From UHGV virus genome UHGV-1520234: 32,223 nt of DNA; one strand, written 5' to 3'. The DNA is from a virus. This document shows, piece by piece, positions 3,547 to 32,223 of the stretch (positions are counted from its first letter, which is position 1; each line of letters begins with the position of its first letter). A program made the translations under genes and the position numbers. The notes below the pieces were generated by a model. It was not told the origin of the DNA. It made no database searches and saw only the letters and a list, made by a program, of their open reading frames with translations.

Positions 3547-3899
3547 TACGCCTCCGATGTAACAGTCGTTATTCCATAAAGAGTGTCGATTTCAGCGGAA
3601 AACATGACACGTCGGGTCGTGGTATCCACCGTCGTATTGAAAGAGAGGATTGATTTAACGCCCCGCGTTTCGAGGATGCGCTTACGGATCGCCAGGTTGT
3701 AGGTTTCCGGCTTCTGCTTACCGAGTACGGACTGGATCCACGGAGTCCCCTCGGTGGTGTCGAGAAACCATTGCCCATACCACAATTCGAATCGCGTTTT
3801 TACCGCCTGCGCCACGGCCTCCGGTGAGTTAATCAGCCAGGTATCATCGCCGCTGCCAAAGGTGTAATCACAGTCGGCGTCTTCGCGTCTGTATCGCAT
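3546..3899 (-). CDS. Baseplate protein (Mu gp46 / gpW-gp25-like)
   Basis: 117-aa ORF tightly coupled to its neighbours in the conserved Mu-like baseplate order. Confidence 0.5.
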   Translation of the reverse strand: MRYRREDADCDYTFGSGDDTWLINSPEAVAQAVKTRFELWYGQWFLDTTEGTPWIQSVLGKQKPETYNLAIRKRILETRGVKSILSFNTTVDTTTRRVMFSAEIDTLYGITTVTSEA

Positions 3900-4651
3900 C
3901 AGTTCACCCCGTCTGTGTTGCTTCCGCCTCGCTGAACCCCGCCGTGCGTGTGCGTATCATCAATTGACTTGCCGTTAGCCTTAACGCTCCCCAAGAACTC
4001 AACAGCACCAGTGATTTTTGAAGCCACACCAGAAACAACAGACCCCACCATGCCCCCCATCCAGGTTAACAGGCCATGAATGGTTACTTTCTCAGAAAAA
4101 TCAGCCAGAGGGGCAACCACATCAAGACCACCCGGAGCGACAATTTTAATTTTCCTGGTGTCAGGATTAAGCTCAAAATAGGTGCTGCCGTCGTCACTAC
4201 GCAACTGTGTGGCACTGGTATTAATACCGCTAATCTTCCTCGCCTGCGACTGGGGACCGACAATACAAAACGCATCCGATAAATCATGCATTCTGTCATC
4301 GACCGGCTCCTGTATCCCGCCACTCTGCCACCAGAAATCAATACAACGATCGGCAAAAACGACAAGACACTCATCCCCGGCTTTTACCGGAAAAGTCAAC
4401 GTGCAGCCTCCGCCGCGCGGGAATACCACTGGCACATCCACCAGCAGGGGTAATGTCGTCGACTGGTTGATTCCATTTGAGTCCGGCTCATAGCCTTTAA
4501 TCGCAGGTTGAACAACTACCGTTACCGTGTCCGGATCAAATGACTGGACAATTCCGGGCAGAGAAACACGCAGTGCCGACATGACAGAACCAGCAAGTCT
4601 TACATCGGCCTGTTCTTTGCTACCAAGTTGAGCGCTTAAAGAAACGGGCAT
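3899..4651 (-). CDS. Baseplate spike / assembly protein V-like (Mu gp45-like)
   Basis: 250-aa ORF, ATG at 4651 preceded by GGAG; N-terminal region (PGIVQSFDP...LPLLVDVPVVFPRGGG) resembles gpV/gp45 spike proteins. Confidence 0.55.
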   Translation of the reverse strand: MPVSLSAQLGSKEQADVRLAGSVMSALRVSLPGIVQSFDPDTVTVVVQPAIKGYEPDSNGINQSTTLPLLVDVPVVFPRGGGCTLTFPVKAGDECLVVFADRCIDFWWQSGGIQEPVDDRMHDLSDAFCIVGPQSQARKISGINTSATQLRSDDGSTYFELNPDTRKIKIVAPGGLDVVAPLADFSEKVTIHGLLTWMGGMVGSVVSGVASKITGAVEFLGSVKANGKSIDDTHTHGGVQRGGSNTDGVN

Positions 4652-4670
4652 TCATATGTCTCCAGAAAGT

Positions 4671-4698
4671 AAAAAACCCAGCCAAAGCTGGGTTTTTT
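4671..4698. terminator. Bidirectional intrinsic terminator between ant and the baseplate spike gene
   Basis: A6 tract, stem cccagc (4677-4682), loop caaa, stem gctggg (4687-4692), T6 tract (4693-4698); the hairpin is followed by a U-run on both strands. Confidence 0.65.
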
Positions 4699-4711
4699 AA
4701 GTTGTCAATTG

Positions 4712-5626
4712 TCAGTAACGATGCAGTGAAGGCGGCAACTCTTTGTTCTTAAGTCTTACCCATGCGGAAAGATTCGTTGGTCCGTCTGGCTCATTGATAT
4801 CAACATCTCGTGTGTGGTTGATTAAAACGTCTCTCGCCATTCCGATAACATACGAAAACTCATGACCGTAGTCGTAGCATCTTCCGGAATAGTTCGATTG
4901 AATTTGTTTTAATGCCGGATACAGTTCGCGGAATAATGCCTGTGATCGGTTAGCATAATCCCACAACCATACAAGGCTGTTTGCTTCTTTTGCAGAAAGC
5001 TCGTTGGTGCTCTTCTCTTGTTTGCCAATGAACTCACCTTCAAGTGGAACTCGAGCTGCAAGTGACAGTGCTTCGGTAAACTGCTCCTCACTGATTTCTT
5101 TGTACGAACAGCCAAAATGAGATTTCAGTGACGACCACATGGTGATCATCGCCTTCGCCTGTTTTTCTTTTGGCAGAGACTGACCGCGACTCATGACGAG
5201 TTGTTTAATAGCTTCCTGCTGTTCAGTGGTGATTTTACCCGGCAACGCCTTTTTAGCTTTCGGTGTATTTCCGTAAGACCCCGTTTTACGAATGGATGGC
5301 AAAACTTCAGCTGTCACCCATTTGCGGAATTTGTGCGGGACTGAACCTTTATTGACGGCATCACGGCAGCGCAGAACCAATGTATACATACCTGATTCGC
5401 TCACAATGCTTAAATTCTGCTCACCACCAAGGGTGTAACTTAAAGTTACTCCCTTCTCATCGTCATCAAGTGCAGTAAGCGCCTTGCGTGAGTTAGTCAG
5501 AGTTAAAGCATCACAAACATCTTTTGCTACAAACCACGGCTCACCGCACCTGTTGATGACGCGGATTTCACTGTCGCCGAATTTGAAGATGGTGAAATCG
5601 TTTTGTGCCTTTGCTATACTTTTCAT
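4712..5626 (-). CDS. ant: Antirepressor (Bro-N domain, P22 Ant-like)
   Basis: 304-aa ORF with an ATG start; N-terminus ([30 protein letters not shown]...[12 protein letters not shown]...[12 protein letters not shown]) matches the Bro-N antirepressor signature. Lies downstream of an arc-like gene as in P22 immI. Confidence 0.7.
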
Positions 5627-5697
5627 GTCAATATTTCCCGATCAGATTTGTTGATGTAGAAGCCTCGCCAGTTCCCGCTGTCGGGGCTTCGTTATTT

Positions 5698-5859
5698 TTA
5701 GAGAGCATTCCGCATTTTCTCCCGGTACTTCAACCACCAAGCTAATCCTTGAACCAACACTGAGTTTTCTGACATTCCCTCTTCCTCTGCAATGCGCTTA
5801 ACTTCTTCCTTAAAGCGGTACGGGTAGCGAAGAGTTGTCTTTACTTCATTCTTTTCCAT
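5698..5859 (-). CDS. arc: Arc-like ribbon-helix-helix repressor (53 aa, not in the ORF track)
   Basis: Translated by hand: MEKNEVKTTLRYPYRFKEEVKRIAEEEGMSENSVLVQGLAWWLKYREKMRNAL. ATG at 5859 preceded by GGAGACAGC; same length and RHH pattern as P22 Arc, directly upstream of ant. Confidence 0.6.
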   Translation of the reverse strand: MEKNEVKTTLRYPYRFKEEVKRIAEEEGMSENSVLVQGLAWWLKYREKMRNAL

Positions 5860-5881
5860 GCTGTCTCCTTATTTCACAATG

Positions 5882-5945
5882 AAGGCAAATTGCCTTTAGA
5901 GTCAATTTACCATGATTGCACATGAAGTCAAGTTGCCTCTACAAT
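5882..5945. promoter_or_regulatory. Divergent overlapping promoters (Pant-like leftward, Pmnt-like rightward) with palindromic operator
   Basis: Perfect 15-bp palindrome AAGGCAAATTGCCTT (5882-5896). Minus-strand promoter: -35 TTGACT (5931..5926), 16-bp spacer, -10 TAAATT (5909..5904), placing the palindrome at about +1 to +15. Plus-strand promoter: -35 ttgcac (5916-5921), 18-bp spacer, -10 tacaat (5940-5945), upstream of mnt. Confidence 0.45.
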
Positions 5946-5966
5946 GATTTTTATTTGAGGTGAGTT

Positions 5967-6290
5967 ATGTCAGAAAAATTTCCCAGCCAAATGCAAGACA
6001 AGTTCACCGTGAGGTTTCCTGACGGATTGCGCGATGCTATAGCTGAACGAGCTAAACGTAATGGCAGATCAATGAACTCAGAGATTGTGCAGATACTGGA
6101 AGATGCCTTGAATGCAGAAAATACTCTTGGGGAAATAGCAGATAAAATTAACAGCGTCTCGGTTCCGCTAAATGTTGATGCGCTAGTTCAACTTCAAGCC
6201 CAAGTTATCGCCATGCAAAAAGAAATACAGGAAAAGTTCAGAGAGCAGAACGAAAAGTTGAGAGAACTGCTAAACAAAAAACCCACCTGA
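5967..6290 (+). CDS. mnt: Mnt-like ribbon-helix-helix repressor with C-terminal coiled coil
   Basis: 107-aa ORF, ATG with GAGGTGAG RBS; N-terminal RHH motif (FTVRFPDGLRDAIAERAKRNGRSMNSEIVQILEDAL) and heptad-like C-terminus. It is one of only two plus-strand genes and is divergent from arc-ant. Confidence 0.6.
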   Translation: MSEKFPSQMQDKFTVRFPDGLRDAIAERAKRNGRSMNSEIVQILEDALNAENTLGEIADKINSVSVPLNVDALVQLQAQVIAMQKEIQEKFREQNEKLRELLNKKPT

Positions 6291-6298
6291 CGGTGGGT
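6274..6298 (-). terminator. Intrinsic terminator for the minus-strand transcript
   Basis: Stem acccacc (6281-6287) / ggtgggt (6292-6298) with a 4-nt loop that contains the mnt stop codon; on the minus strand the hairpin is followed by UUUUUUG (plus A-tract 6274-6280). Confidence 0.6.
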
Positions 6299-6314
6299 TA
6301 CGGAGAGGGCAAGA

Positions 6315-6650
6315 TCATTTAACCTTCCGGCAATCATACGTCCAGAACTCCCGAGGCTCGTCCATATTTTTGCGGATAACTTCAACGTTGAGGATCGCTT
6401 TTTTGTTTCGTTTGATGTAGTCCATACCTAACCAACGTCCAGTATTAGGATCAGGTAACATCCATTGCATCATGACATTATCGAAATCGTCTTTTTGTTT
6501 CAAAAAGGTCATTTTTTGTGTTTCTGGCTTTTGACCATTGATGTGCATGAGGCCATCATTACCAGCATCAAAGCGGAATGGTCCGCACTGCGTTGCCGCC
6601 GAAACGGTTAACGGCAGGGCCAAGAATAAACAAAAAAATACTTTTTTCAC
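6315..6650 (-). CDS. Hypothetical secreted protein with N-terminal signal peptide
   Basis: 111-aa ORF starting with GTG at 6650 that overlaps the upstream stop (GTGA), with GGAG 7 nt upstream. N-terminus MKKVFFCLFLALPLTVSAATQ has the n/h/c architecture of a Sec signal peptide; there is no lipobox. Confidence 0.5.
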   Translation of the reverse strand: MKKVFFCLFLALPLTVSAATQCGPFRFDAGNDGLMHINGQKPETQKMTFLKQKDDFDNVMMQWMLPDPNTGRWLGMDYIKRNKKAILNVEVIRKNMDEPREFWTYDCRKVK

Positions 6651-14926: not shown

Positions 14927-15868
14927 TTAAATGCCATCAACGTACGAAATGGTTTCTTTGTACACTGGCTCGACTGCACCCAGCTTGCCGTAGTAAGTGA
15001 CGATCTGATACAGACCGCGATACTGCACCGGCACGCTCTGAAGCGGAACCAGCGGGTAGCGGACGTATTTTTTATCGTTGGTGTACGCAACCATGCGATC
15101 CTTATTCCCCACACCACGGCCTTTCAGCCATTTAACCGCGCGGATATTCAGCGGAACACCGTTCTGGTGATAGCTGATGGTGTTGGTCTGAAGGTACGTC
15201 AACAGGGACTGGTTACCCGCAGATGAAACGATGATGCTGGACAACAGAGCAAACTGCTCAGGCGGGATCAGCAAATCACGCGGAACCACAGAGTAACCGG
15301 AAGCGGCCCACGCATCAGACAGCACCTGGTTAATGCTTGCGCGGATTTCGTCCGGTGTTGAGGTTGCCCACGTTTTGGCAGCGTTGTTGACAGGAACACC
15401 GTTCAGGGTAACAAGGCCTTTCAGGTTTAATGCGGAATCACCAACATACACCTGTTCATCGTTATCCATCTGCCATTTCAGTTGCATCCCGTCATACTTC
15501 TGCGTATCAATCGGGCGTCCGACCTGCTGAGCAGCCTGCAATTCTATGACCGTCCAGCCCAGTTCCATCCCCCACAGGTTCAGCGGGTTACCGGATTTGC
15601 CGATATCCACGTTCACGCCAGCAATAGCGGTTGAGTCTTTGCCTACCCAGTTTTTGCCATTCGGATTTGCGCCAGTACCCGCAGCGGCGAAGCTGGTATT
15701 CGTCCAGCTGGAAATGTCATCTGCGATGGAGACATCTTCACGCAACTGAATATCGCGGGTCCAGGTGTACCCCACCAGTGGCAGGTTCAGCGTCTGGTCG
15801 AGTCGCTCCAGCTCCCCGATGAGAAAGGCACCAGAGCTGTCAACGGTTGCCTGATCAAAAGTAATCAT
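14927..15868 (-). CDS. Major capsid protein (probable)
   Basis: 313-aa ORF with an ATG start, downstream of scaffold-like genes and followed by a stem-loop; assigned by position and size. Confidence 0.55.
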   Translation of the reverse strand: MITFDQATVDSSGAFLIGELERLDQTLNLPLVGYTWTRDIQLREDVSIADDISSWTNTSFAAAGTGANPNGKNWVGKDSTAIAGVNVDIGKSGNPLNLWGMELGWTVIELQAAQQVGRPIDTQKYDGMQLKWQMDNDEQVYVGDSALNLKGLVTLNGVPVNNAAKTWATSTPDEIRASINQVLSDAWAASGYSVVPRDLLIPPEQFALLSSIIVSSAGNQSLLTYLQTNTISYHQNGVPLNIRAVKWLKGRGVGNKDRMVAYTNDKKYVRYPLVPLQSVPVQYRGLYQIVTYYGKLGAVEPVYKETISYVDGI

Positions 15869-15879
15869 TCGTCTGTTCC

Positions 15880-16383
15880 TTAAATCTTCCAGGAAATTTC
15901 TGCATTGCCGTTAGCATCACCGGCACCTGTGAATTCAGCGTTGGTCAGCACCACATTTTTGCCACTGACTGACGTGGACATGAATCCACCCAGCGGCACT
16001 TTGATGGATTCATCAGTGGAGACGACAACGTATACCGGGTCGCCTTTTTTGATGGTGCTGGCATCAAAATCAGAACCGAGATTAACGGTCACGTAGCCAC
16101 GCTTCATGGCGTCGCCCGGGAAGTTCTTGCCACTCCCCACCTGGAGAACCATGTCCGGCTGCGACGTGGTCGGATAAGGGCGCACATAGATCCCCTTCAC
16201 CTTGTCTGCGGTATCACCATCTGCCAGCGGTACGAAAAAACCGTCAGCATCGTATTTACCAGCCAGCCCATAGGCAGCAAAGGCGTTATCGGATTTAAGG
16301 ACCACCGGTTCGACGGTTAAGTCCTGCGGGCGAGAGATAGCCCCGGCAATGCCAACAGGCATCCGGTACAGATATGCAGTCAT
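15880..16383 (-). CDS. Head structural protein (possible decoration/accessory protein)
   Basis: 167-aa ORF with an ATG start between the scaffold-like gene and the capsid gene. Confidence 0.4.
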   Translation of the reverse strand: MTAYLYRMPVGIAGAISRPQDLTVEPVVLKSDNAFAAYGLAGKYDADGFFVPLADGDTADKVKGIYVRPYPTTSQPDMVLQVGSGKNFPGDAMKRGYVTVNLGSDFDASTIKKGDPVYVVVSTDESIKVPLGGFMSTSVSGKNVVLTNAEFTGAGDANGNAEISWKI

Positions 16384-22458: not shown

Positions 22459-23001
22459 TTAATTAGTGAGTCCGGGGATTACGGTTTGCCCGTGCTGTTC
22501 AAGGCGTTCAATTCTCGCCAGTAGCTGAGGCTTCTTAATTTTTCCCCAGCGATTAAGCAGGCGCCCTGACATGCTGGCAACATCCTTCTCTTTCATGTAC
22601 TCCAGCATTACGGCATTTCTCTCTTCTTCAAATTGACGATGACCAACCTGAAGCATGGCGTACATCCAGTTAAATGCGTTGATGTAAGCAATTTTGATAC
22701 GCATTGCTTCTTTTTTGGTGTAGGACATAACCAAAAGCATCAACCCATCCTTGCGGAGACGGTAGAATTTTTGCGGCTTACCATTCTGTAACTCATTGTT
22801 TTTATAGCAAAGCTCAAAGTTGAGCTTTGTATCAAACTCAGGAGGGCAAGCTTCTATGGTTCGTTCAATGTCACGAACCACGTTCTTCGGCAGCTTTCCA
22901 AATGCTTTTGCCACCATAAAAGAATCTGTAACCGGATCGTTGTTTGCTACAAAAATTAGGTCTCTGAAATCTATATCGTTAACAACGGTTGGGTAGTTCA
23001 T
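22459..23001 (-). CDS. rha: Rha-family phage regulatory protein
   Basis: 180-aa ORF with an ATG start; N-terminal region (VAKAFGKLPKNVVRDIERTIEACPPEF...NFELCYKNN...YRLRKDGLMLLVMSYTKKEAMRIKIAYINAFN) matches the Rha-domain pattern. Located between lysis genes and terminase, as rha is in P22. Confidence 0.55.
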   Translation of the reverse strand: MNYPTVVNDIDFRDLIFVANNDPVTDSFMVAKAFGKLPKNVVRDIERTIEACPPEFDTKLNFELCYKNNELQNGKPQKFYRLRKDGLMLLVMSYTKKEAMRIKIAYINAFNWMYAMLQVGHRQFEEERNAVMLEYMKEKDVASMSGRLLNRWGKIKKPQLLARIERLEQHGQTVIPGLTN

Positions 23002-23806: not shown

Positions 23807-24279
23807 ACCTCAATCTCTCTGACCGTTCCGCCAGCTTCTTTGAATTTTGCAATCAGGCTGTCAGCCTTATGCTCGAACTGACCATAACCAGCGCCCGGAA
23901 GAGAAGCCCAGATATTGCTACAACGGTCGATAGCCTGACGGATATCACCGCGATCAATCATCGGCAAAGCGCCACGCTCTTTAATCTGTTGCAATGCCAC
24001 AGCGTCCTGGCTTTTCGGAGAGAAGTCTTTCAGGCCAAGCTGCTTACGATAGGCATCCCACCAACGGGAAAGAAGCTGGTAACGTCCGGCAGCTGTTGAT
24101 TTGAGTTTGGGGTTTAGCGTGACAAGTTTGCGAGGGTGATCGGAGTAATCAGTGAATAGCTCTCCGCCAACAATGACGTCATAACCATGATTTCTGGTTT
24201 TCTGTCGTCCGTTATCAGTTCCCTCTGACCACGCCAGCATATCGAGGAACGCCTTACGTTGATTATTGATTTCCACCAT
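23803..24279 (-). CDS. R: Endolysin R (lytic transglycosylase, lambda R-like)
   Basis: 158-aa ORF with an ATG start, overlapping S by 17 nt as in lambda; sequence essentially matches lambda R as recalled. Confidence 0.9.
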
Positions 24280-24586
24280 CTTCTACTCCGGCTTTTTTAG
24301 CAGCGAAGCGTTTGATAAGCGAACCAATCGAGTCAGTACCGATGTAGCCGATGAACACGCTCGTTATATAAGCGAGATTGCTACTTAGTCCTGCGAAGTC
24401 GAGAAGGTCACGAATGAACCAGGCGATAATGGCGCACATCGTTGCGTCGATTACTGTTTTTGTAAACGCACCGCCATTATATCTGCCGCGAAGGTACGCC
24501 ATTGCAAACGCAAGGATTGCCCCGATGCCTTGTTCCTTTGCCGCGAGAATGGCGGCTAACAGGTCATGTTTTTCTGGCATCTTCAT
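24263..24586 (-). CDS. S: Holin S with dual start (S107 antiholin / S105 holin)
   Basis: 107-aa ORF beginning [10 protein letters not shown]; ATG codons at 24586 and 24580 reproduce the lambda Met1-Lys2-Met3 dual-start motif; near-identical to lambda S. Confidence 0.9.
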
Positions 24587-24705
24587 GTCTTACCCCCAAT
24601 AAGGGGATTTGCTCTATTTAATTAGGAATAAGGTCGATTACTGATAGAACAAATCCAGGCTACTGTGTTTAGTAATCAGATTTGTTCGTGACCGATATGC
24701 ACGGG

Positions 24706-24741
24706 CAAAACGGCATGAGGTTGTTAGCGCAACCTCTTGCC
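24706..24741 (-). other. Stem-loop upstream of S
   Basis: Imperfect inverted repeat ggcatgaggttg / caacctcttgcc with a U-run following on the minus strand; lies in the stretch that matches the lambda sequence just upstream of S. Confidence 0.4.
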
Positions 24742-24884
24742 ACCCGCTTTCACGAAGCCAGCCATTGAGCTGGTTTTCTTTTATGCAAAGCACACCGCAC
24801 CGTAGCCACAGCGGATAAGGTGATTATTTTTGTCTGTCTGGTATTTGGTTTGATGTGCTTTCAGAAAGGCCGTGCTTAAAACGC

Positions 24885-24912
24885 AAAAAGCCCCGAGCTA
24901 TTAACTCAGGGC
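24885..24912 (-). terminator. tR'-like intrinsic terminator ending a short PR' leader
   Basis: Minus-strand transcript GCCCUGAG-UUAAUAG-CUCGGGGC followed by UUUUUG; about 60 nt downstream of the predicted PR' start. Confidence 0.55.
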
Positions 24913-24948
24913 TTTATTTAACGAGTGCATTTATCCATCGTTGAGTCA

Positions 24949-24977
24949 AATTTACCCAATTTTATTCAATAAGTCAA
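24949..24977 (-). promoter_or_regulatory. Late promoter PR' with qut region
   Basis: Minus strand reads TTGACTTATTGAATAAAATTGGGTAAATTTGACTCAACGATGG: -35 TTGACT (24977..24972), 17-bp spacer, -10 TAAATT (24954..24949). This matches lambda PR' as recalled; sequence then diverges from lambda downstream of about +10. Confidence 0.7.
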
Positions 24978-25019
24978 TATCATGCCGTTAATATGTTGCC
25001 ATCCGTGGCAATCATGCTG

Positions 25020-25643
25020 CTAACGTGTGACCGCGTTCAAAATGTTGTCTGCGATTGACTCTTCTTTGTGGCATTGCACCACCAGAGCGTCATACAGCGG
25101 CTTAACAGTGCGTGACCAGGTGGGTTGGGTGAGGTTTGGGATTAGCATCGTTACAGCGCGATATGCGGCGCTTGCTGGCATTCTTGAATAGCCGACACCT
25201 TTGCATCTTCCGCACTCTTTCTCAACAACTCTCCCCCACTGCTCTGTTTTGGCTATATCAACCGCACGGCCTGTACCGTGGCAATCTCTGCATCTTGCGC
25301 CCGGCGTCGCGGCACTACGGCAATAATCCGCATAAGCGAATGTTGCGAGCACTTGCAGTACCTTTGCCTTAGTATTTCCTTCAAGCTTTGCAACGCCACG
25401 GTATTTCCCCGATACCTTGTGTGCAAATTGCATCAGATAGTTGATAGCCTTTTGTTTGTCGTTCTGGCTGAGTTCATGCTTACCGCAGAATGCAGCCATT
25501 CCGAATCCGGCTTGTGATTGCGCCATCCCCATAGCAGCCATCACATCAGTACCGGAAAGAGAGTCAGAAGCCGTAGCCCGTGGTGAGTCGCTCATCATCG
25601 GGCTTTTTGGCGAATGAAATTTAGCTACGCTTTCGAGTCTCAC
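25020..25643 (-). CDS. Q: Late antiterminator Q (lambda Q-like)
   Basis: 207-aa ORF, essentially the lambda Q sequence as recalled; the start codon here is GTG, overlapping the ninI stop (GTGA). Confidence 0.9.
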
Positions 25644-26305
25644 GCGCCTTCTCCCTGTACCTGAATCAATGTGAGATTTCCGCAGAACACTGCGCCGGTA
25701 TCGATATACATCTGGTTGGCAAATTTGAGTGGTTTCACTGCTGGCGTGTGACCAAAGATGAACGTGTCCGCGCCTTTAATTTCTTTCACGATCCCGATTT
25801 GTGAGTTGCTGATTCGTTCGCGGTTCCAGATTACCTGCTGATGATCAACTGGCTTTCCAAATTCGTATTCTTCACAAGGATAATCGGCGTGGCAGATGAC
25901 ATGTTTTTTACCTTTGCTCACCAGTTCGATGATTAACGGAAGTTCTTCTGCTTTATGGGCAAGAGCTTTAGCCAGAATTTCTTTGTCGTAATCGAGATTA
26001 AAGAACCAGCCACCGCCATTAAGCAGCCAGTGATTAACGTTTCCACGCTCTGATAAGCCATCAATCATCATTTGCTCATGGTTTCCACGTACAGCTCTGA
26101 ACCAGGGGAATGTGATTAATTCCATACATTCGACGTTCTCTGTACCGCGATCAACCAAATCGCCAACCGAGATAAGCAGGTCTTTTTTGGTGTCGAATCC
26201 TATCGTCTCCAGTTTTTTCATCATGTTCGTGTAGCATCCGTGCAGATCGCCAACTACCCAAACATTTCGGTATTTGCTGCCATCAATTCTTTCGTAATAG
26301 CGCAT
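25640..26305 (-). CDS. ninI: Ser/Thr protein phosphatase (lambda NinI-like)
   Basis: Track ORF begins at a TTG at 26380; the homologous start is ATG at 26305 ([25 protein letters not shown]...) with GGAG upstream, giving 221 aa. Metallophosphatase motifs GDLHG, GDLVDRG and GNHE are present. Confidence 0.85.
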
Positions 26306-26489
26306 CTCTTTCACTCCATCCGCGATGAACCATAAGAACGTCGTTGACGATGGCGTGCATTTTCCCGTCTTTATCATCAACGTATTTTCTGACCGTGCCG
26401 CGACTACATTTCAGTCTGCGTGCTACTTCTGTCTGGTTTCCGTATGCTTCAACAAGCATGTCTGGAATGGTTTTTACTGAGAACGTCAT
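26283..26489 (-). CDS. ninH: NinH
   Basis: 68-aa ORF with ATGA overlap to the ninG stop; same length and position as lambda NinH. Confidence 0.75.
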
Positions 26490-27097
26490 GCGGCCTCACT
26501 TCTGCTATTTCGCAGGTCTTTGAGTTTCTTCTGATACTCCGCCTTGATGGCCATGCACTCTTCGACAGTCCAACGATGGCGGCTATGGTTTGATTCGATT
26601 TCGTCTACTGCTTCCTGCCCGATGCGGCTAATCAGTTCGACGCGATACGGAACGAGATTTCCGCTTTTGTGCTGGTTGCACACCACGCATTGCTTGTGAA
26701 TATTGCGTTCATCAAATCGGAGTTGAGGTGCCGCAGCAGTTGTCCGGTAATGTCCGGCATCCCACTGAGCAGACGTGAGCGTTCCGCACGAGATACATGG
26801 TAAGTCGCGGTCTCTTTCTCTGATGAAAGCGTTTACGGCTTGTTGGGCTTGTTTAATCCAGTAACTGCGGGGCTTTAAGGCGAGTTTTCGAATCTTAAGT
26901 TTATCTTTCTGTTTCTGCTCCTCTCGTCTTCGTTTCTTCTCTGCTGCTTTTTCCGCTTTTTCGCGTTCTTTACTTCGTCGTTCGAGTGCTATCTTGGTTC
27001 CACACTCTGGAGAGCACCACCACTGATTAGCGAATGCAGGGTGAAACCATTCCCGACATTCATCGTTTTTACATCGTCTTCGCGCTGGTTTAGCCAT
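26486..27097 (-). CDS. ninG: NinG recombination protein (Rap-like)
   Basis: 203-aa ORF with an ATG start overlapping the ninF stop; cysteine-rich (CxxC pairs), matching lambda NinG in size and position. Confidence 0.8.
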
Positions 27098-27266
27098 CGT
27101 CTTCTTCCTCGTACATTGAGCTATTCGGATCGCTCATCAGTTCTGCGCAGCAGTGCTCACACACGTGAACTTCCAGCACATGCAGCTTCTGGCCGCAGTT
27201 AGCGCACGTTAAAGCCCGCTCGACGCTTTCTTTCTGGTATTGAAGGGATTGGGATGGGCTAAGCAT
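27090..27266 (-). CDS. ninF: NinF (58 aa, not in the ORF track)
   Basis: Translated by hand: [58 protein letters not shown]; ATG at 27266 overlaps the upstream stop (TAATG). Confidence 0.65.
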
Positions 27267-27625
27267 TATTGGATTCTCTGCATCATGAGAAAGACAATCA
27301 TGGCGGCGCGGAGGGGATTTTCATGTATAGCTCGCTTAGATTTACAGTAGGCCACACCGCGTGCACCCCACTCGTCTTCATCGAGATTGATAATGCTAAT
27401 CCTGTATTTTTCAATAATCGGCCATGCGTCTGCTGGGTTTGCGCATGGGTTAAAGGATCCGCGCTCAACTTCTACTTCAACTGCGTCTCCGTTTACAACG
27501 TCTCCCTCAAATGAGACAAACACCATATCGCCATTCTCACCTTCTTTGTAATCCGGTGATCCGTTATGAATGGCTTCGAATACCGCCACGTTAATTTCAA
27601 AATCACTTAACTGTGAATAATCCAT
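27266..27625 (-). CDS. Hypothetical acidic protein inserted between ninE and ninF
   Basis: Track ORF begins at a GTG at 27667; ATG candidates at 27631 and 27625 (MDYSQLSDFEINVAV...), the latter with GAGGA 8 nt upstream. Canonical lambda has no gene between ninE and ninF. Confidence 0.5.
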   Translation of the reverse strand: MDYSQLSDFEINVAVFEAIHNGSPDYKEGENGDMVFVSFEGDVVNGDAVEVEVERGSFNPCANPADAWPIIEKYRISIINLDEDEWGARGVAYCKSKRAIHENPLRAAMIVFLMMQRIQ

Positions 27626-27627
27626 TG

Positions 27628-27804
27628 TCATTTCCTCGCACGATGTCTTAGCCACCGGATATCCCACAGGTGAGCCGTGTAGTTGAAGGTTTTTACGTCA
27701 GATTCTTTTGGGATTGGCTTGCGTTTATTTCTGGAGCGTTTCGTTGGAAGGTATTTGCAGTTTTCACAGATTATGTCGGTGATACTTCGTCGCTGTCTCG
27801 CCAC
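27628..27804 (-). CDS. ninE: NinE-like protein (about 58 aa, not in the ORF track)
   Basis: Hand translation from a GTG at 27804: [57 protein letters not shown]; AGGAGG lies only 3 nt upstream, so the exact start is uncertain. Confidence 0.5.
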
Positions 27805-27944
27805 ACGTCCTCCTTTTCCTGCGGTAGTGGTAACACCCCTGTTGGTGTTCTTTCACACCGGAGACACCATCTATTCCAGTAAGGTTGGTTTGGTCGGAAG
27901 CGGTTATCTTCTTTGCATTCACCGCACCGATAACATCGCATCAT
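27771..27944 (-). CDS. ninD: NinD-like small zinc-finger protein (57 aa, not in the ORF track)
   Basis: Hand translation: [57 protein letters not shown]; ATG overlaps the ninC stop (ATGA); two CxxC pairs. Confidence 0.55.
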
Positions 27945-28813
27945 GCAGCCTCCCTCCCGAAGTCGAAATCAAGCTGCCCTCCAAATATTTCGCATGACTC
28001 AGAACAAGAGCCGGTATCGAATCTTTTAGCTCGTACCATGTCCTGATACAGGGCTTGATAATCATTTTCTGAATACATTTTCGCGATACCGTCCAGCGAC
28101 ATTCTTCCTCGGTACATAATCTCCTTTGGCGTTTCCCGATGTCCGTCACGCACATGCGATCCCGTGATGACCTCATTAAAAACACGCTGCAATCCCTCCT
28201 CATCTTTGCAGGCAAGTCCGATTTTTTGCGTTGATTTTTTAATGCAGAATATGCAGTTACCGAGATGTTCCGGTATTTGCAAATCGAATGGTTGTTGCTT
28301 CCACCATGCGAGGATATCTTCCTTCTCAAAGTCTGACAGTTCAGCAAGATATCTGATTCCAGGCTTTGGCTTTAGCCGCTTCGGTTCATCAGCTCTGATG
28401 CCAATCCACGTGGTGTAATTCCCTCGCCCGAAATGGTCATCACAGTATTTGGTGAAGGGAACGAGTTTTAATCTGTCAGTGCAGAACGCGCCGCCGACGT
28501 ATGGAGTGCCATATTTCTTTACCATATCGATAAATGGCTTCAGAACAGGCAGTCGCGTCTGAATATCCTTTGGTTCCCATACCGTATAACCATTTGGCTG
28601 CCCAAGCTCTGGGTTGATATCAACCTGCAATACGGTGAGCGGTATATCCCAGAACTTCACAACTTCCCTGACAAACCGATATGTCATTGGATGTTCACAA
28701 CCTGTATCCATGAAAACGTAATGCACGTCTTCACCTGCCCGTCGCTTTTGCTCCATTAGCCAGAGCAAATATGCTGACGTCCTGCCACCGGAGAAACTAA
28801 CGACATTTATCAT
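27941..28813 (-). CDS. ninC: NinC (PAPS reductase-like family)
   Basis: Track ORF extends upstream to 28873; the ATG at 28813 ([18 protein letters not shown]...) overlaps the ninB stop and gives 290 aa, the lambda NinC length. SFSGG P-loop-like motif typical of the PAPS reductase/ATP-PPase fold. Confidence 0.8.
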
Positions 28814-29250
28814 GCAGCCCTGTCTCCCCATCGCGCTTTCCACTCCAGAGCCAGTCGCGCTTCGTCTGACCACTTAACGCCACGCTCTGTACCGAATGCC
28901 TGTATAAGCTCTAATAGCTCCGCAAATTCGCTTACACGCATCCTGCTGGTTGACTGGCCTATTACCACAAAGCCATTCCCGGCAAGGTTAGGAACAACAT
29001 CCTGCTGCTTTAATGCTGCGGTAAACACACACTTCCAGCTTTCTGCATCCAGCCAGCGACCATGCCATTCAACCTGACGAGAGACGTCACCTAAGCAGGC
29101 CCATAGCTTCCTGTTTTGGTCTAAGCTGCGGTTGCGTTCCTGAATGGTTACTACGATTGGTTTGGTTGGGTCTGGAAGAATTTGCTGTACTGCGTGAATA
29201 GCGTTTTGCTGATGTGCTGGAGATCGAATTTCAAAGGTTAGTTTTTTCAT
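28810..29250 (-). CDS. ninB: NinB recombination protein (Orf family)
   Basis: Track ORF begins at a TTG at 29268; ATG at 29250 (MKKLTFEIRSPAHQQ...) with a G-rich RBS gives 146 aa, the lambda NinB length. Confidence 0.8.
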   Translation of the reverse strand: MKKLTFEIRSPAHQQNAIHAVQQILPDPTKPIVVTIQERNRSLDQNRKLWACLGDVSRQVEWHGRWLDAESWKCVFTAALKQQDVVPNLAGNGFVVIGQSTSRMRVSEFAELLELIQAFGTERGVKWSDEARLALEWKARWGDRAA

Positions 29251-29270
29251 GACTTCCCTCTCCCCCAAAT

Positions 29271-29298
29271 AAAAAGGCCTGCGATTACCAGCAGGCCT
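29271..29298 (-). terminator. tR2-like intrinsic terminator between the replication genes and the nin region
   Basis: Perfect 8-bp stem aggcctgc (29275-29282) / gcaggcct (29291-29298) with an 8-nt loop; on the minus strand it is followed by UUUUUAUUUG. Confidence 0.55.
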
Positions 29299-29327
29299 GT
29301 TATTAGCTCAGTGATGTAGATGGTCAT

Positions 29328-31208
29328 TTAATACTCCGTCACGTTTTCCTGTCGCCACGCCTCGTCATATTCCGATTTCGGCATATTGGCGATGTAGCTA
29401 TATGGCGATCCTGATTCAAGTTGCAGGAACTGGTGCGATTGCTCGTCAAGGAACAACGGGACACCACCTTCCCAACCTTCGCCGTTACGTTGTTTTTCAA
29501 GCATCAAAACAGATGCCGGAGATGCCAGTAGCTGTTCGTCCTTCTCTGACATCTTTTCACCACTCTGAACTCTCTGTAACGCTCTCTCGCGAGCCTTGTT
29601 ACGCCAGATGATGAAAAGGTTGTCTGTCAGGTCTGTTATCGCTCCAGAGCCTTTTACGTCCATTTTCCCGGTTGGTTTTTCTTCGCTGTCTCCTTTTCGC
29701 GAGTGAGTAACGAGAATGACGTGGGAGTTTGTTTTGTTTTTGAAGTCGCAAATCGAGTCAACAAACGCCTTCTGCCCGTTATAGTCATCGTCGCCTATGC
29801 CACATTTCATCAGGCTGTCGATGATGAATAACTGGATCCCGTATCGGCGGCGAGCGTAGTCGAATATTTCGATCAGCCTGTCGGCTTTCGCCGTTCCGGT
29901 CAGGCCAAACACCCAAAGTCTTTCGTCATAAAATTTAAATGCAGAGTCAATTTCCAGCACTGGCGGAATCTTGCAGCACGTCGCCTGACGGGTAAGGCGC
30001 TTAAGGAGAATACCAGGCTTCAGCTCAAGTGACGCGATGCACGTCTTCACACCCTGACGCATTGCCTCAAGTGCCATATGCCCGACAACCTCCGTTTTTC
30101 CGTGACCGTTCACACCATTGACCAGCGTCAACTCTGCCTCACGGAACTGGAATTTATCTGCCAGAGATTCCCACGGTGGATTAAACAGATACTGCTGCTT
30201 GCCGTAGAAAGCGTTGATAGTGTCCTGGTAAAACTCTCGCGCGCTGTAGAGTTCTTCAGGATCGAAGTAGGATGCCGTGCCGATGTACTGCCAGATTTCA
30301 TCCTCGGTAACACCGTTCATCAGGCATTCGTTGATGTCTTTGTACGGCAGAGTAACAAGACGGCAACGATGTTCACCGAGTCGGCTTGCGATTTCCCTTG
30401 CGGCTTCACGACCAACATCATCAACGTCCATCGAGATGAATATTTCCTCAAACCTGTCGAGGTTGTGATACTCAAACTCAATCCACTGCTGCTTAGCGCC
30501 TTTCCCGCCACCAAACGGCACGGATAACGCCGAGATGCCGTATTGCGCATAGCTCATACAATCAATTTCGCCTTCGCAAAGTACAACCGCCCTCACGCCA
30601 GCGTCCAGAGCCTGCCATCCGAACAGACAAGGTTCGCAATCACCTTCTGCCATAATGACTTTCTTCCCGTCCGGGCGCTCAGTGCTGATTCGCTTGACCT
30701 GCAACAACTCACCATCGCGTTTGTACGGAAGCACCAGAGCATCCAGTTCTCGTTCTCCATTCCACACCTTGCCGCTGACAACCTCGTAGCGCTTTACGAC
30801 TTCTGGCGATATGCCACGCGATTGCAGGTACTCAAGATGGGATTCTGTTCTGGTAACGTAGCGGGCGATTTTCTTGCGATCAGGCCTGGAGAATTTCTTC
30901 TCACGTCTGGCATCGAAATGGTGATCGTCATCCTTGATACCGAGAAATGCTTTCGCTTCCTGCATAGCCTGATGCAGGTTAATTCCACGACATGCCATCC
31001 ACAAATCAAGCATGTCACCGCCGTCTCCCTCAGCGAAATCAGCCCATTTTTTCTTGCCGCTAAGGTTGACCTTAAGGCTGTTTCCCTTGTCACCGTTGAC
31101 GTTACCGGCAACCCACTCATGCCCCTCTTTCTTGCCGTTTGGCAACAGGTGCGGAGCCACCCTGTCAACCTGCGCCCAAAGCAGGTCACTGAGTTCACTT
31201 GGCGTCAT
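29328..31208 (-). CDS. Bifunctional DNA primase / replicative helicase (Toprim N-terminal, DnaB-like C-terminal)
   Basis: 626-aa ORF with an ATG start; central acidic Toprim-like segment (VVLCEGEIDCMSYAQ) and a C-terminal Walker A (GVNGHGKTE) with a Walker B-like LFIIDS. Confidence 0.75.
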   Translation of the reverse strand: MTPSELSDLLWAQVDRVAPHLLPNGKKEGHEWVAGNVNGDKGNSLKVNLSGKKKWADFAEGDGGDMLDLWMACRGINLHQAMQEAKAFLGIKDDDHHFDARREKKFSRPDRKKIARYVTRTESHLEYLQSRGISPEVVKRYEVVSGKVWNGERELDALVLPYKRDGELLQVKRISTERPDGKKVIMAEGDCEPCLFGWQALDAGVRAVVLCEGEIDCMSYAQYGISALSVPFGGGKGAKQQWIEFEYHNLDRFEEIFISMDVDDVGREAAREIASRLGEHRCRLVTLPYKDINECLMNGVTEDEIWQYIGTASYFDPEELYSAREFYQDTINAFYGKQQYLFNPPWESLADKFQFREAELTLVNGVNGHGKTEVVGHMALEAMRQGVKTCIASLELKPGILLKRLTRQATCCKIPPVLEIDSAFKFYDERLWVFGLTGTAKADRLIEIFDYARRRYGIQLFIIDSLMKCGIGDDDYNGQKAFVDSICDFKNKTNSHVILVTHSRKGDSEEKPTGKMDVKGSGAITDLTDNLFIIWRNKARERALQRVQSGEKMSEKDEQLLASPASVLMLEKQRNGEGWEGGVPLFLDEQSHQFLQLESGSPYSYIANMPKSEYDEAWRQENVTEY

Positions 31209-31312
31209 GATTCCCTCAGATTGAGATTTTTAAACCAGAAATCGACAAACGAAATACTTAACCAGCCGTGGTTATAACCAGCGACCAGTAGCGATTTGAT
31301 TTTTGATTTCAT
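31205..31312 (-). CDS. Small coupled ORF between O and the primase-helicase (35 aa, not in the ORF track)
   Basis: Hand translation: MKSKIKSLLVAGYNHGWLSISFVDFWFKNLNLRES. ATG sits 3 nt after the O stop and the stop TGA overlaps the primase-helicase ATG (ATGA). Confidence 0.3.
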   Translation of the reverse strand: MKSKIKSLLVAGYNHGWLSISFVDFWFKNLNLRES

Positions 31313-31315
31313 GGT

Positions 31316-32176
31316 TCACCTGTCGAAAAACACGTAGCCAGTTTTCGATACGGTGATTGCGGATGATGGTTTGGATTGTGGTTGAATGGTTTCTGGCTTT
31401 TCGTCGTTCCAGCGCTGACCGTTCAAGTAGCTCGATGGTAACAACCTGTCGAATCCGAACTGCTTACCATTCCTGCATGCGATGTCTTCTGCCAGCATCG
31501 TGGCAAACTCGCTTGCCGTACCCCTGGTAGTTTTACGCCATTCCCTGAACTGTGTTCTGAATGCCGAAGCTGCGTTTTTTTTCCCGGCTTTCCGCATGCC
31601 TGCACACCAGAATATTTCCTCGAATGCCTTGTCGGTTTCTTCGTGACGGTCAGGTGATTTTTCACACTCCGTCCGAACACTTTCGGACATAGTGTTTTTA
31701 TTATTTCTTTTTTCTTTTGTAATAGTTTCTTTTGTGTGTCCCTGTTTTGGTGACAGCGCTGTCACCGTTTTGGTGACACTTTTTGTCACCAATGCAGTGA
31801 CATTATCACCAGAGTAGTGACACCCTTCGATTTGCCATTCCTCGATGTTCTTGTTAGGCCCGATTTGCTGGCCTTCGCGAAGGATAACCTTCATCGCGAT
31901 AAGCTCATTCTTGGCCTTGTTTACCTTCTGTCTTGGCAGCCTGGTAATTTGAGCTAACTGACTATCAGAGATGCAATCCATCTTTTTACCGTAGCCGTAT
32001 GTTTTACGGCATATGGCGTGGGCAACCTTGCTCTGATTTTTCGTTAAATCTGCGCCGATAAGCTCTTCATACAGGGCATTTGCAAGACGGGTATAACCAT
32101 CTTCAACTTCTGCCACACGACGCTCCACAGGCCGTTGTGAAGGCCTTAAATGTGTTACGGTTGCAAGATTACTCAT
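31316..32176 (-). CDS. O: Replication initiator, lambda O-like N-terminal domain
   Basis: 286-aa ORF with an ATG start and GGAGAAAGG RBS; the N-terminal ~110 aa align with lambda O as recalled (DGYxRLxNxLxExxxGADLTKxQxKV...KTYGxxKxMDxIxDSQLxxITxLP...GPNKNIxEW); iterons lie within the coding sequence. Confidence 0.75.
   Translation of the reverse strand: MSNLATVTHLRPSQRPVERRVAEVEDGYTRLANALYEELIGADLTKNQSKVAHAICRKTYGYGKKMDCISDSQLAQITRLPRQKVNKAKNELIAMKVILREGQQIGPNKNIEEWQIEGCHYSGDNVTALVTKSVTKTVTALSPKQGHTKETITKEKRNNKNTMSESVRTECEKSPDRHEETDKAFEEIFWCAGMRKAGKKNAASAFRTQFREWRKTTRGTASEFATMLAEDIACRNGKQFGFDRLLPSSYLNGQRWNDEKPETIQPQSKPSSAITVSKTGYVFFDR
31694..31735. other. AT-rich putative DNA-unwinding region of the origin
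   Basis: AT-rich stretch (tttttattatttcttttttcttttgtaatagtttcttttg) immediately on the O-downstream side of the iterons, the same order as in the lambda ori. Confidence 0.5.
31735..31825. repeat. Replication origin iterons inside the O gene
   Basis: Four spaced inverted-repeat units built on GTGACA/TGTCAC half-sites: perfect 18-bp palindrome ggtgacagcgctgtcacc (31749-31766), ggtgacactttttgtcacc (31772-31790), gtgacattatcacc (31797-31810), gtgacac (31818-31824). Confidence 0.6.
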
Positions 32177-32223
32177 GACCTTTCTCCTTCTGCATCAGCT
32201 TCACTTTTTCCAACTCAGCCCGG

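Follow-up and report, generated by a model that had tools for sequence, protein, structure and literature searches.

An immI-like antirepressor cassette, bracketed by terminators, in the baseplate operon of a temperate myovirus

The virus genome UHGV-1520234, analysed here as one stretch of 32,223 nucleotides (nt; the window), carries at positions 4671–6299 a homologue of the immI region of phage P22. The region runs from hairpin to hairpin and holds the antirepressor gene ant, a gene for a 53-amino-acid (aa) Arc-like protein, a putative sar-type RNA and a divergent gene of the Arc family. The P22 module (mnt-arc-sar-ant) was reportedly described by Susskind in 1980 and by Sauer and colleagues in 1983. 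The annotated P22 genome NC_002371 served as the reference for comparison. The three open reading frames (ORFs) were found at 4712–5626 (minus strand, 304 aa), 5698–5859 (minus strand, 53 aa) and 5967–6290 (plus strand, 107 aa), where an earlier reading made from the letters of the window without database searches (the sequence-only reading) had placed them. Profile searches bore out the families it had named, with Bro-N and P22_AR_C in Ant, Pfam Arc in the product of the divergent gene and a PHROG Arc-like repressor model for the 53-aa protein. When the window was compared with phage genomes by megablast, homology to other phages started and stopped at 4670 and 6297; because it spans exactly this interval, chance assembly of the unit can be dismissed.

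The ant gene (4712–5626, minus strand) encodes a 304-aa antirepressor homologue with an N-terminal Bro-N domain (Pfam, 6.6e-20) and a C-terminal P22_AR_C domain (1.2e-29), as expected of the Bro-N antirepressor originally proposed here, and the protein matched PHROG 245, ‘anti-repressor Ant’, at 2.3e-111. Residues 118–304 share 63.5% identity with P22 Ant (E 2.6e-79), and the 3′ end of the gene together with the terminator beyond it forms a block of 374 bp with 86% DNA identity to P22 15661–16034, making this an antirepressor gene homologous to P22 ant. The N-terminal domain is unrelated to its P22 counterpart. In many E. coli prophages (genomes H83–H93) the ant and sar region (approximately 92% identity, matching 4680–5690) stands beside a gene for a ‘YlcI/YnfO family protein’ in place of arc, so that this antirepressor may have a different regulatory partner there.

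Directly upstream of ant, on the same strand, lies the small Arc-type gene (5698–5859, minus strand), the first gene of the arc-ant transcript, preceded by an AAGGAG Shine-Dalgarno sequence and encoding a 53-aa ribbon-helix-helix (RHH) protein. The claim that this protein is Arc-like held up: it matched PHROG 582, ‘Arc-like repressor’, at 3.8e-10, and its top sequence matches in the PDB were variants of P22 Arc (E 0.002–0.1), followed by weaker matches to the Arc-family protein 9pio (0.27) and the VapB26 antitoxin (0.44). Identity to P22 Arc, an obligate dimer, was 43% over 28 aa, with a pairwise E of 8e-7. Against 12 homologues the ratio of non-synonymous to synonymous differences (pN/pS) was 0.03–0.16, with pS as high as 0.77, as would be seen for a real gene under strong purifying selection. 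The sequence-only reading had stated that the ORF was to be found only by hand translation; the ORF is real, but the Prokaryotic Genome Annotation Pipeline (PGAP) already annotates it in RefSeq genomes.

On the plus strand, opposite the arc-ant spacer, lies a probable sar-type antisense RNA that had been overlooked in the earlier reading, and for which position, promoter, fold, covariation and identity to P22 are concordant. The sar-like element (5627–5699, plus strand) covers the whole spacer and the ant ribosome-binding site, and the RNA itself is predicted to extend over about 5627–5694. A Psar-like promoter (5592–5620, plus strand; GTGAAA-17-TATACT, with TG before the −10) was predicted by promoter scan inside ant codons 2–12, spanning ant nt +7 to +35, the same place as the annotated P22 Psar (15097–15125). 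A −10-like hexamer is kept at this position in 27 distinct cassette variants despite their differing Ant N-termini, mostly as TAYAMT (TATACT, TACAAT, TACACT, TATAAT) and as TAAACT in the Shiga toxin (Stx)-type and L085 variants. The Rfam sar model (RF00262) matched 5628–5694 on the plus strand over its full length (1–68) with 28.5 bits (E 0.005; gathering score 43); related cassettes scored 48 and 38.4 bits on the same model, and the region shares 70% DNA identity with P22 sar across 81 nt.

The predicted fold of the sar region (minimum free energy −26.4 kcal/mol, z = −4.9) has two plus-strand hairpins, a 5′ hairpin at 5627–5655 and a terminator hairpin at 5659–5690 that is followed by a T-run. 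Compensatory double changes were detected by RNAalifold in 6/13 pairs of the terminator stem. The MAFFT alignment misplaced the 5′ stem, and RNAalifold recovered the terminator hairpin only; the variants were then folded one by one, which amounts to descriptive evidence rather than a formal covariation test. A two-hairpin fold was common to 27/27 variants, beginning in each at the nucleotide adjoining the ant start codon, with nine different pairs of 5′-stem arms. Such an RNA would lie cis-antisense to the ribosome-binding site of ant, and so would need only to be transcribed in order to act.

The divergent gene in the mnt position (5967–6290, plus strand) encodes a 107-aa Arc-family RHH protein (Pfam Arc, 1.5e-18) with a helical C-terminal half. 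Among PDB sequences it matched AmrZ (3e-9), Mnt (2.7e-6) and Arc (5e-4), and its RHH domain has 51% identity to that of P22 Mnt over 37 aa; the 3′ end of the gene and its hairpin are conserved with P22 mnt. The Mnt-specific domain Repressor_Mnt (PF11423) gave no match in this protein at E ≤ 0.1, on a model where P22 Mnt itself scores 1.6e-20, and blastp detected no similarity between its C-terminal half and P22 Mnt. On these grounds the gene product is referred to here as an Arc-family protein in the mnt position, and not as Mnt: of the divergent Mnt-like gene first proposed, position, strand and family stand, while strict orthology to Mnt does not.

Two promoters were predicted between the RHH genes by consensus match in the promoter scan: a leftward, Pant-like promoter (5931..5904, minus strand; TTGACT-16-TAAATT with TG, start near 5897) and a rightward, Pmnt-like promoter (5917..5945, plus strand; TGCACA-17-TACAAT, start near 5952). 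They had been described as face-to-face, but their geometry is divergent, with an overlap of 15 bp, like that of P22 Pant and Pmnt. The perfect palindrome reported at the leftward start is present (O1, 5882–5896, both strands; a 7-1-7 arrangement, AAGGCAA-A-TTGCCTT, at approximately +1 to +15 of the leftward promoter and in the same position as P22 Omnt), although it is not the sole one, being the first of three related repeats at +1, −10 and −35. O3 (5900–5914, both strands; AGTCAATTTACCATG), an operator-like inverted-repeat pair, lies on the leftward −10 hexamer (5909–5904), and O2 (5925–5939, both strands; AAGTCAAGTTGCCTC), likewise operator-like, lies on the leftward −35 and within the spacer of the rightward promoter. 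All three belong to a single half-site class, (A/G)AG(G/T)CAA, and the departures of O2 and O3 from O1 generate the promoter hexamers. O1 and O2 fall within a 30-nt direct repeat of 77% identity, spaced by 43 bp. Sites resembling the palindrome with at most three mismatches occur in the 32-kb window only at 5882–5896, at 5925–5939 and, by chance, at 31074. The palindrome count for the whole window was marginal (5 matches against 1.6 expected; five or more in 4/100 shuffles), and the argument for operators is drawn not from the count but from the clustering of the repeats within 58 bp on promoter elements and from the conservation of this architecture across cassette types. At the sequence level the two predicted promoters of the control region diverge and overlap, and operator-like dyads sit at +1, −10 and −35.

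Comparison between cassette types bears on which protein would read these repeats. Cassettes of type B have the same Arc as the type A cassette of the window (98% identical, with an identical N-terminus), but the N-terminus of their mnt-position protein reads YEKFVVRFP against QDKFTVRFP here, and their three repeats (GGCAT-A-ATGCC and AGCAATATGCC) differ from those of type A, at a nearly equal spacing of 27/16 bp against 26/17 bp. A similar −35/−10 pair with a repeat in the rightward promoter spacer could be seen by eye in types B and 5. Because the repeats change with the N-terminus of the mnt-position protein while Arc is constant, they appear to track the former and not Arc, and the cassettes show five or more pairings of an Mnt N-terminus with an operator. 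In variants L068–L076, L079 and L083–L085, half-sites of two kinds (GGGGCCAA and GGTGTTAA) are joined in hybrid operators at +1, −10 and −35, so that two different RHH proteins might share single operators there.

The whole is bracketed by terminators, in agreement with the sequence-only reading: one was read directly, the other was recovered by scan on the minus strand, and both align with P22. The exit (ant) terminator (4671–4698, both strands; A6-CCCAGC-CAAA-GCTGGG-T6) is bidirectional, lies 19 bp upstream of the start of the spike gene (4651) and falls inside the 86%-identical block, which contains the annotated P22 ant terminator (16012–16035); it is conserved in Stx phage as well as in P22. 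This hairpin was taken from direct reading and P22 homology; the simple terminator scan missed it, presumably since its A and T runs can pair. The entry terminator (6270–6299, minus strand) consists of a hairpin at 6280–6299 with a T-run down to 6270, and the mnt stop codon (TGA, 6288–6290) is located in its loop. It is 92.6% identical to P22 14509–14535, at the end of mnt, and is also kept in Stx phage. The T-runs of both hairpins point in the direction of the late operon.

All large ORFs in the window lie on the minus strand, from replication gene O through NinG, the Q antiterminator, a lambda-type holin and Rz to the genes for head, sheath, tube and baseplate. The sequence-only reading had called the baseplate operon Mu-like; the nearest relatives of the structural half are coliphages of the vB_EcoM-689R2 type (95%) and Salmonella myovirus SEN34 (83%), and Sf101 (97%) comes nearest in the Q and lysis part. 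To judge from these genes, the host is a temperate myovirus of the SEN34/vB_EcoM-689R2 type, a contractile-tailed prophage of E. coli whose Q, lysis and replication genes are lambdoid. The complete genome that comes closest over the early region (98.4% identity) continues with cII, a cro-like helix-turn-helix gene and a gene for a LexA-family repressor, the class that P22 Ant inactivates. The phage's own repressor is thus probably of the cI/C2 type, as judged from this mosaic relative. The early, nin, Q and lysis half (24000–32223) is 98.4% identical to a prophage of E. coli B7A (L116) that has a different, P22-like structural module (portal, PBSX-type terminase); a prophage of podovirus type and one of myovirus type thus clearly share an entire module as a mosaic. 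A second antirepressor-like gene of the same phage, for a Rha-family regulator with an ORF11CD3 C-terminal domain (22459–23001, minus strand), is found between the lysis genes and terminase, where P22 has its rha. Products of the nin region include a PAPS-reductase-domain protein (27941–28873, minus strand) and a NinI-like Ser/Thr phosphatase (25640–26380, minus strand); the PAPS-reductase-type gene of the closest genome precedes one for an N6-adenine methyltransferase.

The cassette occupies a variable cargo slot (4680–6314) between the spike gene (3899–4651) and a gene of the STY1065/STY2022 family (6315–6650). Homology to two relatives without the cassette, L003 and L004, extends to 4679/4695 and resumes at 6315. 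In sister prophages the slot (L003, 2581–2990; L004, 2597–3882) holds a DUF4282 gene (L003), two hypothetical genes (L004) or a thioredoxin-domain gene; each of these cargoes closes with a hairpin of its own, which begins AAAAAACCC and lies close upstream of the spike gene. The sequence-only reading had set the cassette between two baseplate genes, which is right for the spike gene on the left; the right neighbour encodes a small protein without a demonstrated baseplate role. This 111-aa ORF (6315–6650, minus strand; GTG start, PHROG 3443, ‘STY1065/STY2022 family phage-derived protein’), which is part of the baseplate operon and conserved in cassette-free relatives, has a signal-peptide-like N-terminus (MKKVFFCLFLALPLTVSAATQCG), and its product looks like an exported protein.

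Cassette parts are common, being present in 1159/5426 complete E. coli genomes, whereas an immI variant in this slot was found in about 5/5426 and the exact mosaic in one (98.8%). Among 110 IMG/VR loci, related cassettes had three settings: they were flanked by gpL and gpK in lambdoid siphoviruses, adjoined gp9/gp16 in P22-like podoviruses, or occupied the myovirus slot described here, in which no fewer than four variants occur (L006/L007, L010, L054/L056 and L083). An identical cassette was recovered in two independent IMG/VR contigs of 42–44 kb. Pairwise comparisons placed recombination breakpoints near 5044, 5260–5285, 5684–5690, 5997–6012 and 6106, indicating that the ant C-terminus, the ant N-terminus, a core of sar, arc, operators and mnt N-terminus, and the mnt C-terminus reassort. 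The suggestion that the unit is portable is supported: the same hairpin-bounded cassette occurs in Stx siphoviruses, P22-like podoviruses and the myovirus slot, which in relatives is otherwise filled.

Taken together, it is highly likely that 4671–6299 is a functional-looking immI-type ‘ant moron’, a terminator-bracketed second immunity unit carried as exchangeable late-operon cargo by a SEN34-like temperate myovirus with a lambdoid early region. Like morons in the sense of Hendrix and Casjens, the cassette is variably present among syntenic relatives, has its own promoters and two terminators, and is situated in the late operon. The support for this reading consists of homology, anatomy, conservation, covariation and mosaic distribution; every step of binding, repression and antirepression is inferred from P22.

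By this reading, in the lysogen the mnt-position RHH protein, expressed from the rightward promoter, would bind O1–O3 (at +1, −10 and −35) and hold the leftward arc-ant promoter off. On infection by a cassette-bearing phage the leftward promoter would fire briefly, and Ant would bind and inactivate a LexA-family repressor of the cI/C2 type, whether encoded by this phage or by a lambdoid prophage in the same cell. The Arc-like protein would subsequently close the leftward promoter, and the sar-like RNA, transcribed from the promoter in the ant start, would pair with the ant ribosome-binding site and limit translation of Ant. The entry and exit terminators may shield the unit from ordinary transcription, while late polymerase modified by Q would read past both into the genes for spike, baseplate and fibre. 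Both the ‘ant moron’ of P22-like phages and Q-dependent read-through have been described (PMC2629481; PMC8022706).

Several observations weigh against so direct a transfer from P22. The presence of Bro-N instead of P22_AR_N at its N-terminus means that the target of Ant could differ from that of P22 Ant. The Pfam Arc score of the 53-aa protein, 19.2 bits, is slightly under the cutoff of 20.4, and the sar match also falls short of its gathering score. The mnt-position protein is, by sequence, without the Mnt C-terminal tetramerisation domain, so that its oligomeric state may not be that of Mnt. A separate Arc operator was sought as a dyad conserved between type A and type B cassettes, which have the same Arc, and none was found. 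The phage's own repressor lies outside the window and its type is taken from a mosaic relative. Finally, mnt transcripts were undetected in lysogens of the related phage Kapi1 (PMC12922286), and for this reason the P22 logic may not transfer unchanged.

A somewhat different emphasis, to which we give an appreciable but lesser chance, is that the cassette serves mainly as a weapon of prophage crosstalk, the Bro-N Ant acting in trans on the repressors of other lambdoid prophages and co-inducing them or breaking their immunity on infection, with the Mnt-like protein protecting the lysogen against superinfection by phages of the same immI. P22 Ant is active on heterologous lambdoid repressors. The cassette is also found widely in lambdoid and P22-like prophages that share these hosts, as the 1159 E. 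coli genomes with cassette parts attest, and the variety of Mnt N-termini and operators is what would be expected under diversifying selection for specificity. In Salmonella, trans-acting antirepressors reportedly coordinate induction among prophages (PMC3121763). Such a role is, however, compatible with the immI-type reading and does not exclude it, and the host phage itself probably has a cI/C2-type repressor.

That the cassette is instead a passive or decaying remnant, gained by recombination with a lambdoid prophage and of no role in the myovirus, is very improbable. It would accord with the rarity of immI variants in the slot and with the degraded ant morons described in P22-like phages (PMC2629481), but none of the three ORFs is disrupted, strong purifying selection acts on the one for Arc, conservation extends to the promoters, the Psar −10, both hairpins and the sar fold, and the identical cassette recurs in two independent contigs. 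A toxin-antitoxin or partition-type pair of RHH genes, with the Bro-N protein as a DNA-binding regulator or anti-defence factor, was rejected as scarcely credible: Bro-N is a widespread DNA-binding domain, and the Mnt-like protein also matches FitA-like and HicB antitoxin RHH models and ‘partition protein ATPase’ PHROGs, but the antitoxin matches are far weaker than that to Arc (8e-9 against 1.5e-18), the unit has no toxin or ATPase gene, the ‘partition’ label appears traceable to mis-annotation of P22 mnt, and Ant, over its C-terminal 185 aa, has 63.5% identity to P22 Ant and is accompanied by a probable sar-type RNA specific to its control.

With the immI-type reading thus preferred, a more general proposal may be put forward tentatively, as a possibility rather than an expectation: that the immI unit is a discrete module moving among the late operons of podo-, sipho- and myoviruses with its terminator hairpins as recombination boundaries, that sar/arc, the operators and the first ~10–15 mnt codons are exchanged as a specificity core, independently of the C-terminal parts of ant and mnt, and that in this lineage the circuit is simpler than that of P22, with three operators of one half-site class, recognised by the mnt-position protein and perhaps by Arc as well, in place of the two unrelated P22 operators.

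The cassette is a complete and tidy case of a known module: the immI module and the moron concept are textbook matter, and the genes are already annotated publicly, in RefSeq, so that the advance is incremental. What is new is limited to the site in the baseplate operon of a contractile tail, the hairpin-bounded unit across three tail morphotypes with an exchangeable specificity core, and the operator layout of three repeats with a single half-site. The open-access literature yielded no account of an immI cassette in the baseplate operon of a myovirus, which is weak evidence of absence. The second immunity circuit of P22, with its antisense RNA, is not confined to P22-like podoviruses but circulates as a bounded module in E. 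coli and Salmonella prophages of three tail types. A myovirus with such a module could overcome the immunity that resident lambdoid prophages confer, those of Stx phages among them, or could come under their control, which is relevant to how prophages are induced and interact in polylysogens. The natural series of operators and Mnt N-termini combined with a constant Arc offers material for studying the evolution of RHH specificity.

Of the known systems, one is P22 immI itself, which the window matches in gene order, orientation relative to the late operon, Arc length, spacer, Psar position and both hairpins. In each phage the late operon leads to a convergent gene in the mnt position, then the divergent control region, arc, ant and the next tail gene. 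Arc is 53 aa in both, the arc-ant spacer measures 68 bp in P22 and 71 bp in the window, and Ant is 300 aa in P22 and 304 aa here. The arc-ant spacer holds sar in P22 and the putative sar-like RNA in the window, with Psar inside the ant start. The two also share divergent overlapping promoters, a dyad (operator-like in the window) at +1 of Pant, the C-terminal domain of ant with its terminator (86% DNA identity) and a hairpin that holds the mnt stop codon. They differ at the Ant N-terminus (P22_AR_N in P22, Bro-N in the window) and in the mnt-position protein, which in the window has a longer, unrelated C-terminal half and no Repressor_Mnt domain. Where P22 uses Oarc (21 bp) and Omnt (17 bp), operators unrelated to each other, the window has three related repeats of one half-site class. 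Furthermore, the window cassette is without sieA and orf59a, and its host is contractile-tailed.

The ‘ant moron’ of P22-like phages, described from the epsilon34 genome (Villafane et al. 2008) in the gene 16–gene 9 interval of podoviruses, is likewise an independently expressed late-operon cassette in a slot with differing gene sets in relatives and quick turnover (PMC2629481); the slot in the window belongs instead to the baseplate operon of a myovirus, with a spike gene on one side and a small gene on the other. Stx and lambdoid siphovirus cassettes (Stx2a_WGPS8, NC_049944; phage 2851; YYZ-2008) carry ant, arc and an Arc-family gene between tail genes L and K. Their hairpin-to-hairpin boundaries are identical to those of the window cassette and lie 10–19 bp from the flanking tail genes, and DNA identity reaches approximately 93% over the 3′ 590 bp of ant with its terminator and from mnt codon 11 to the hairpin. 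The central segment (Ant N-terminus, sar/arc, operators and the first ~10 mnt codons) differs, implying a different immI specificity. Beyond phages, the best solved-structure match to the RHH domain of the mnt-position protein is Pseudomonas AmrZ (3qoq, E 3e-9), with which it shares the arm and β-strand motif DKF-x-V-R-x-P; AmrZ is a chromosomal regulator without antirepressor context, and the likeness is confined to the RHH domain.

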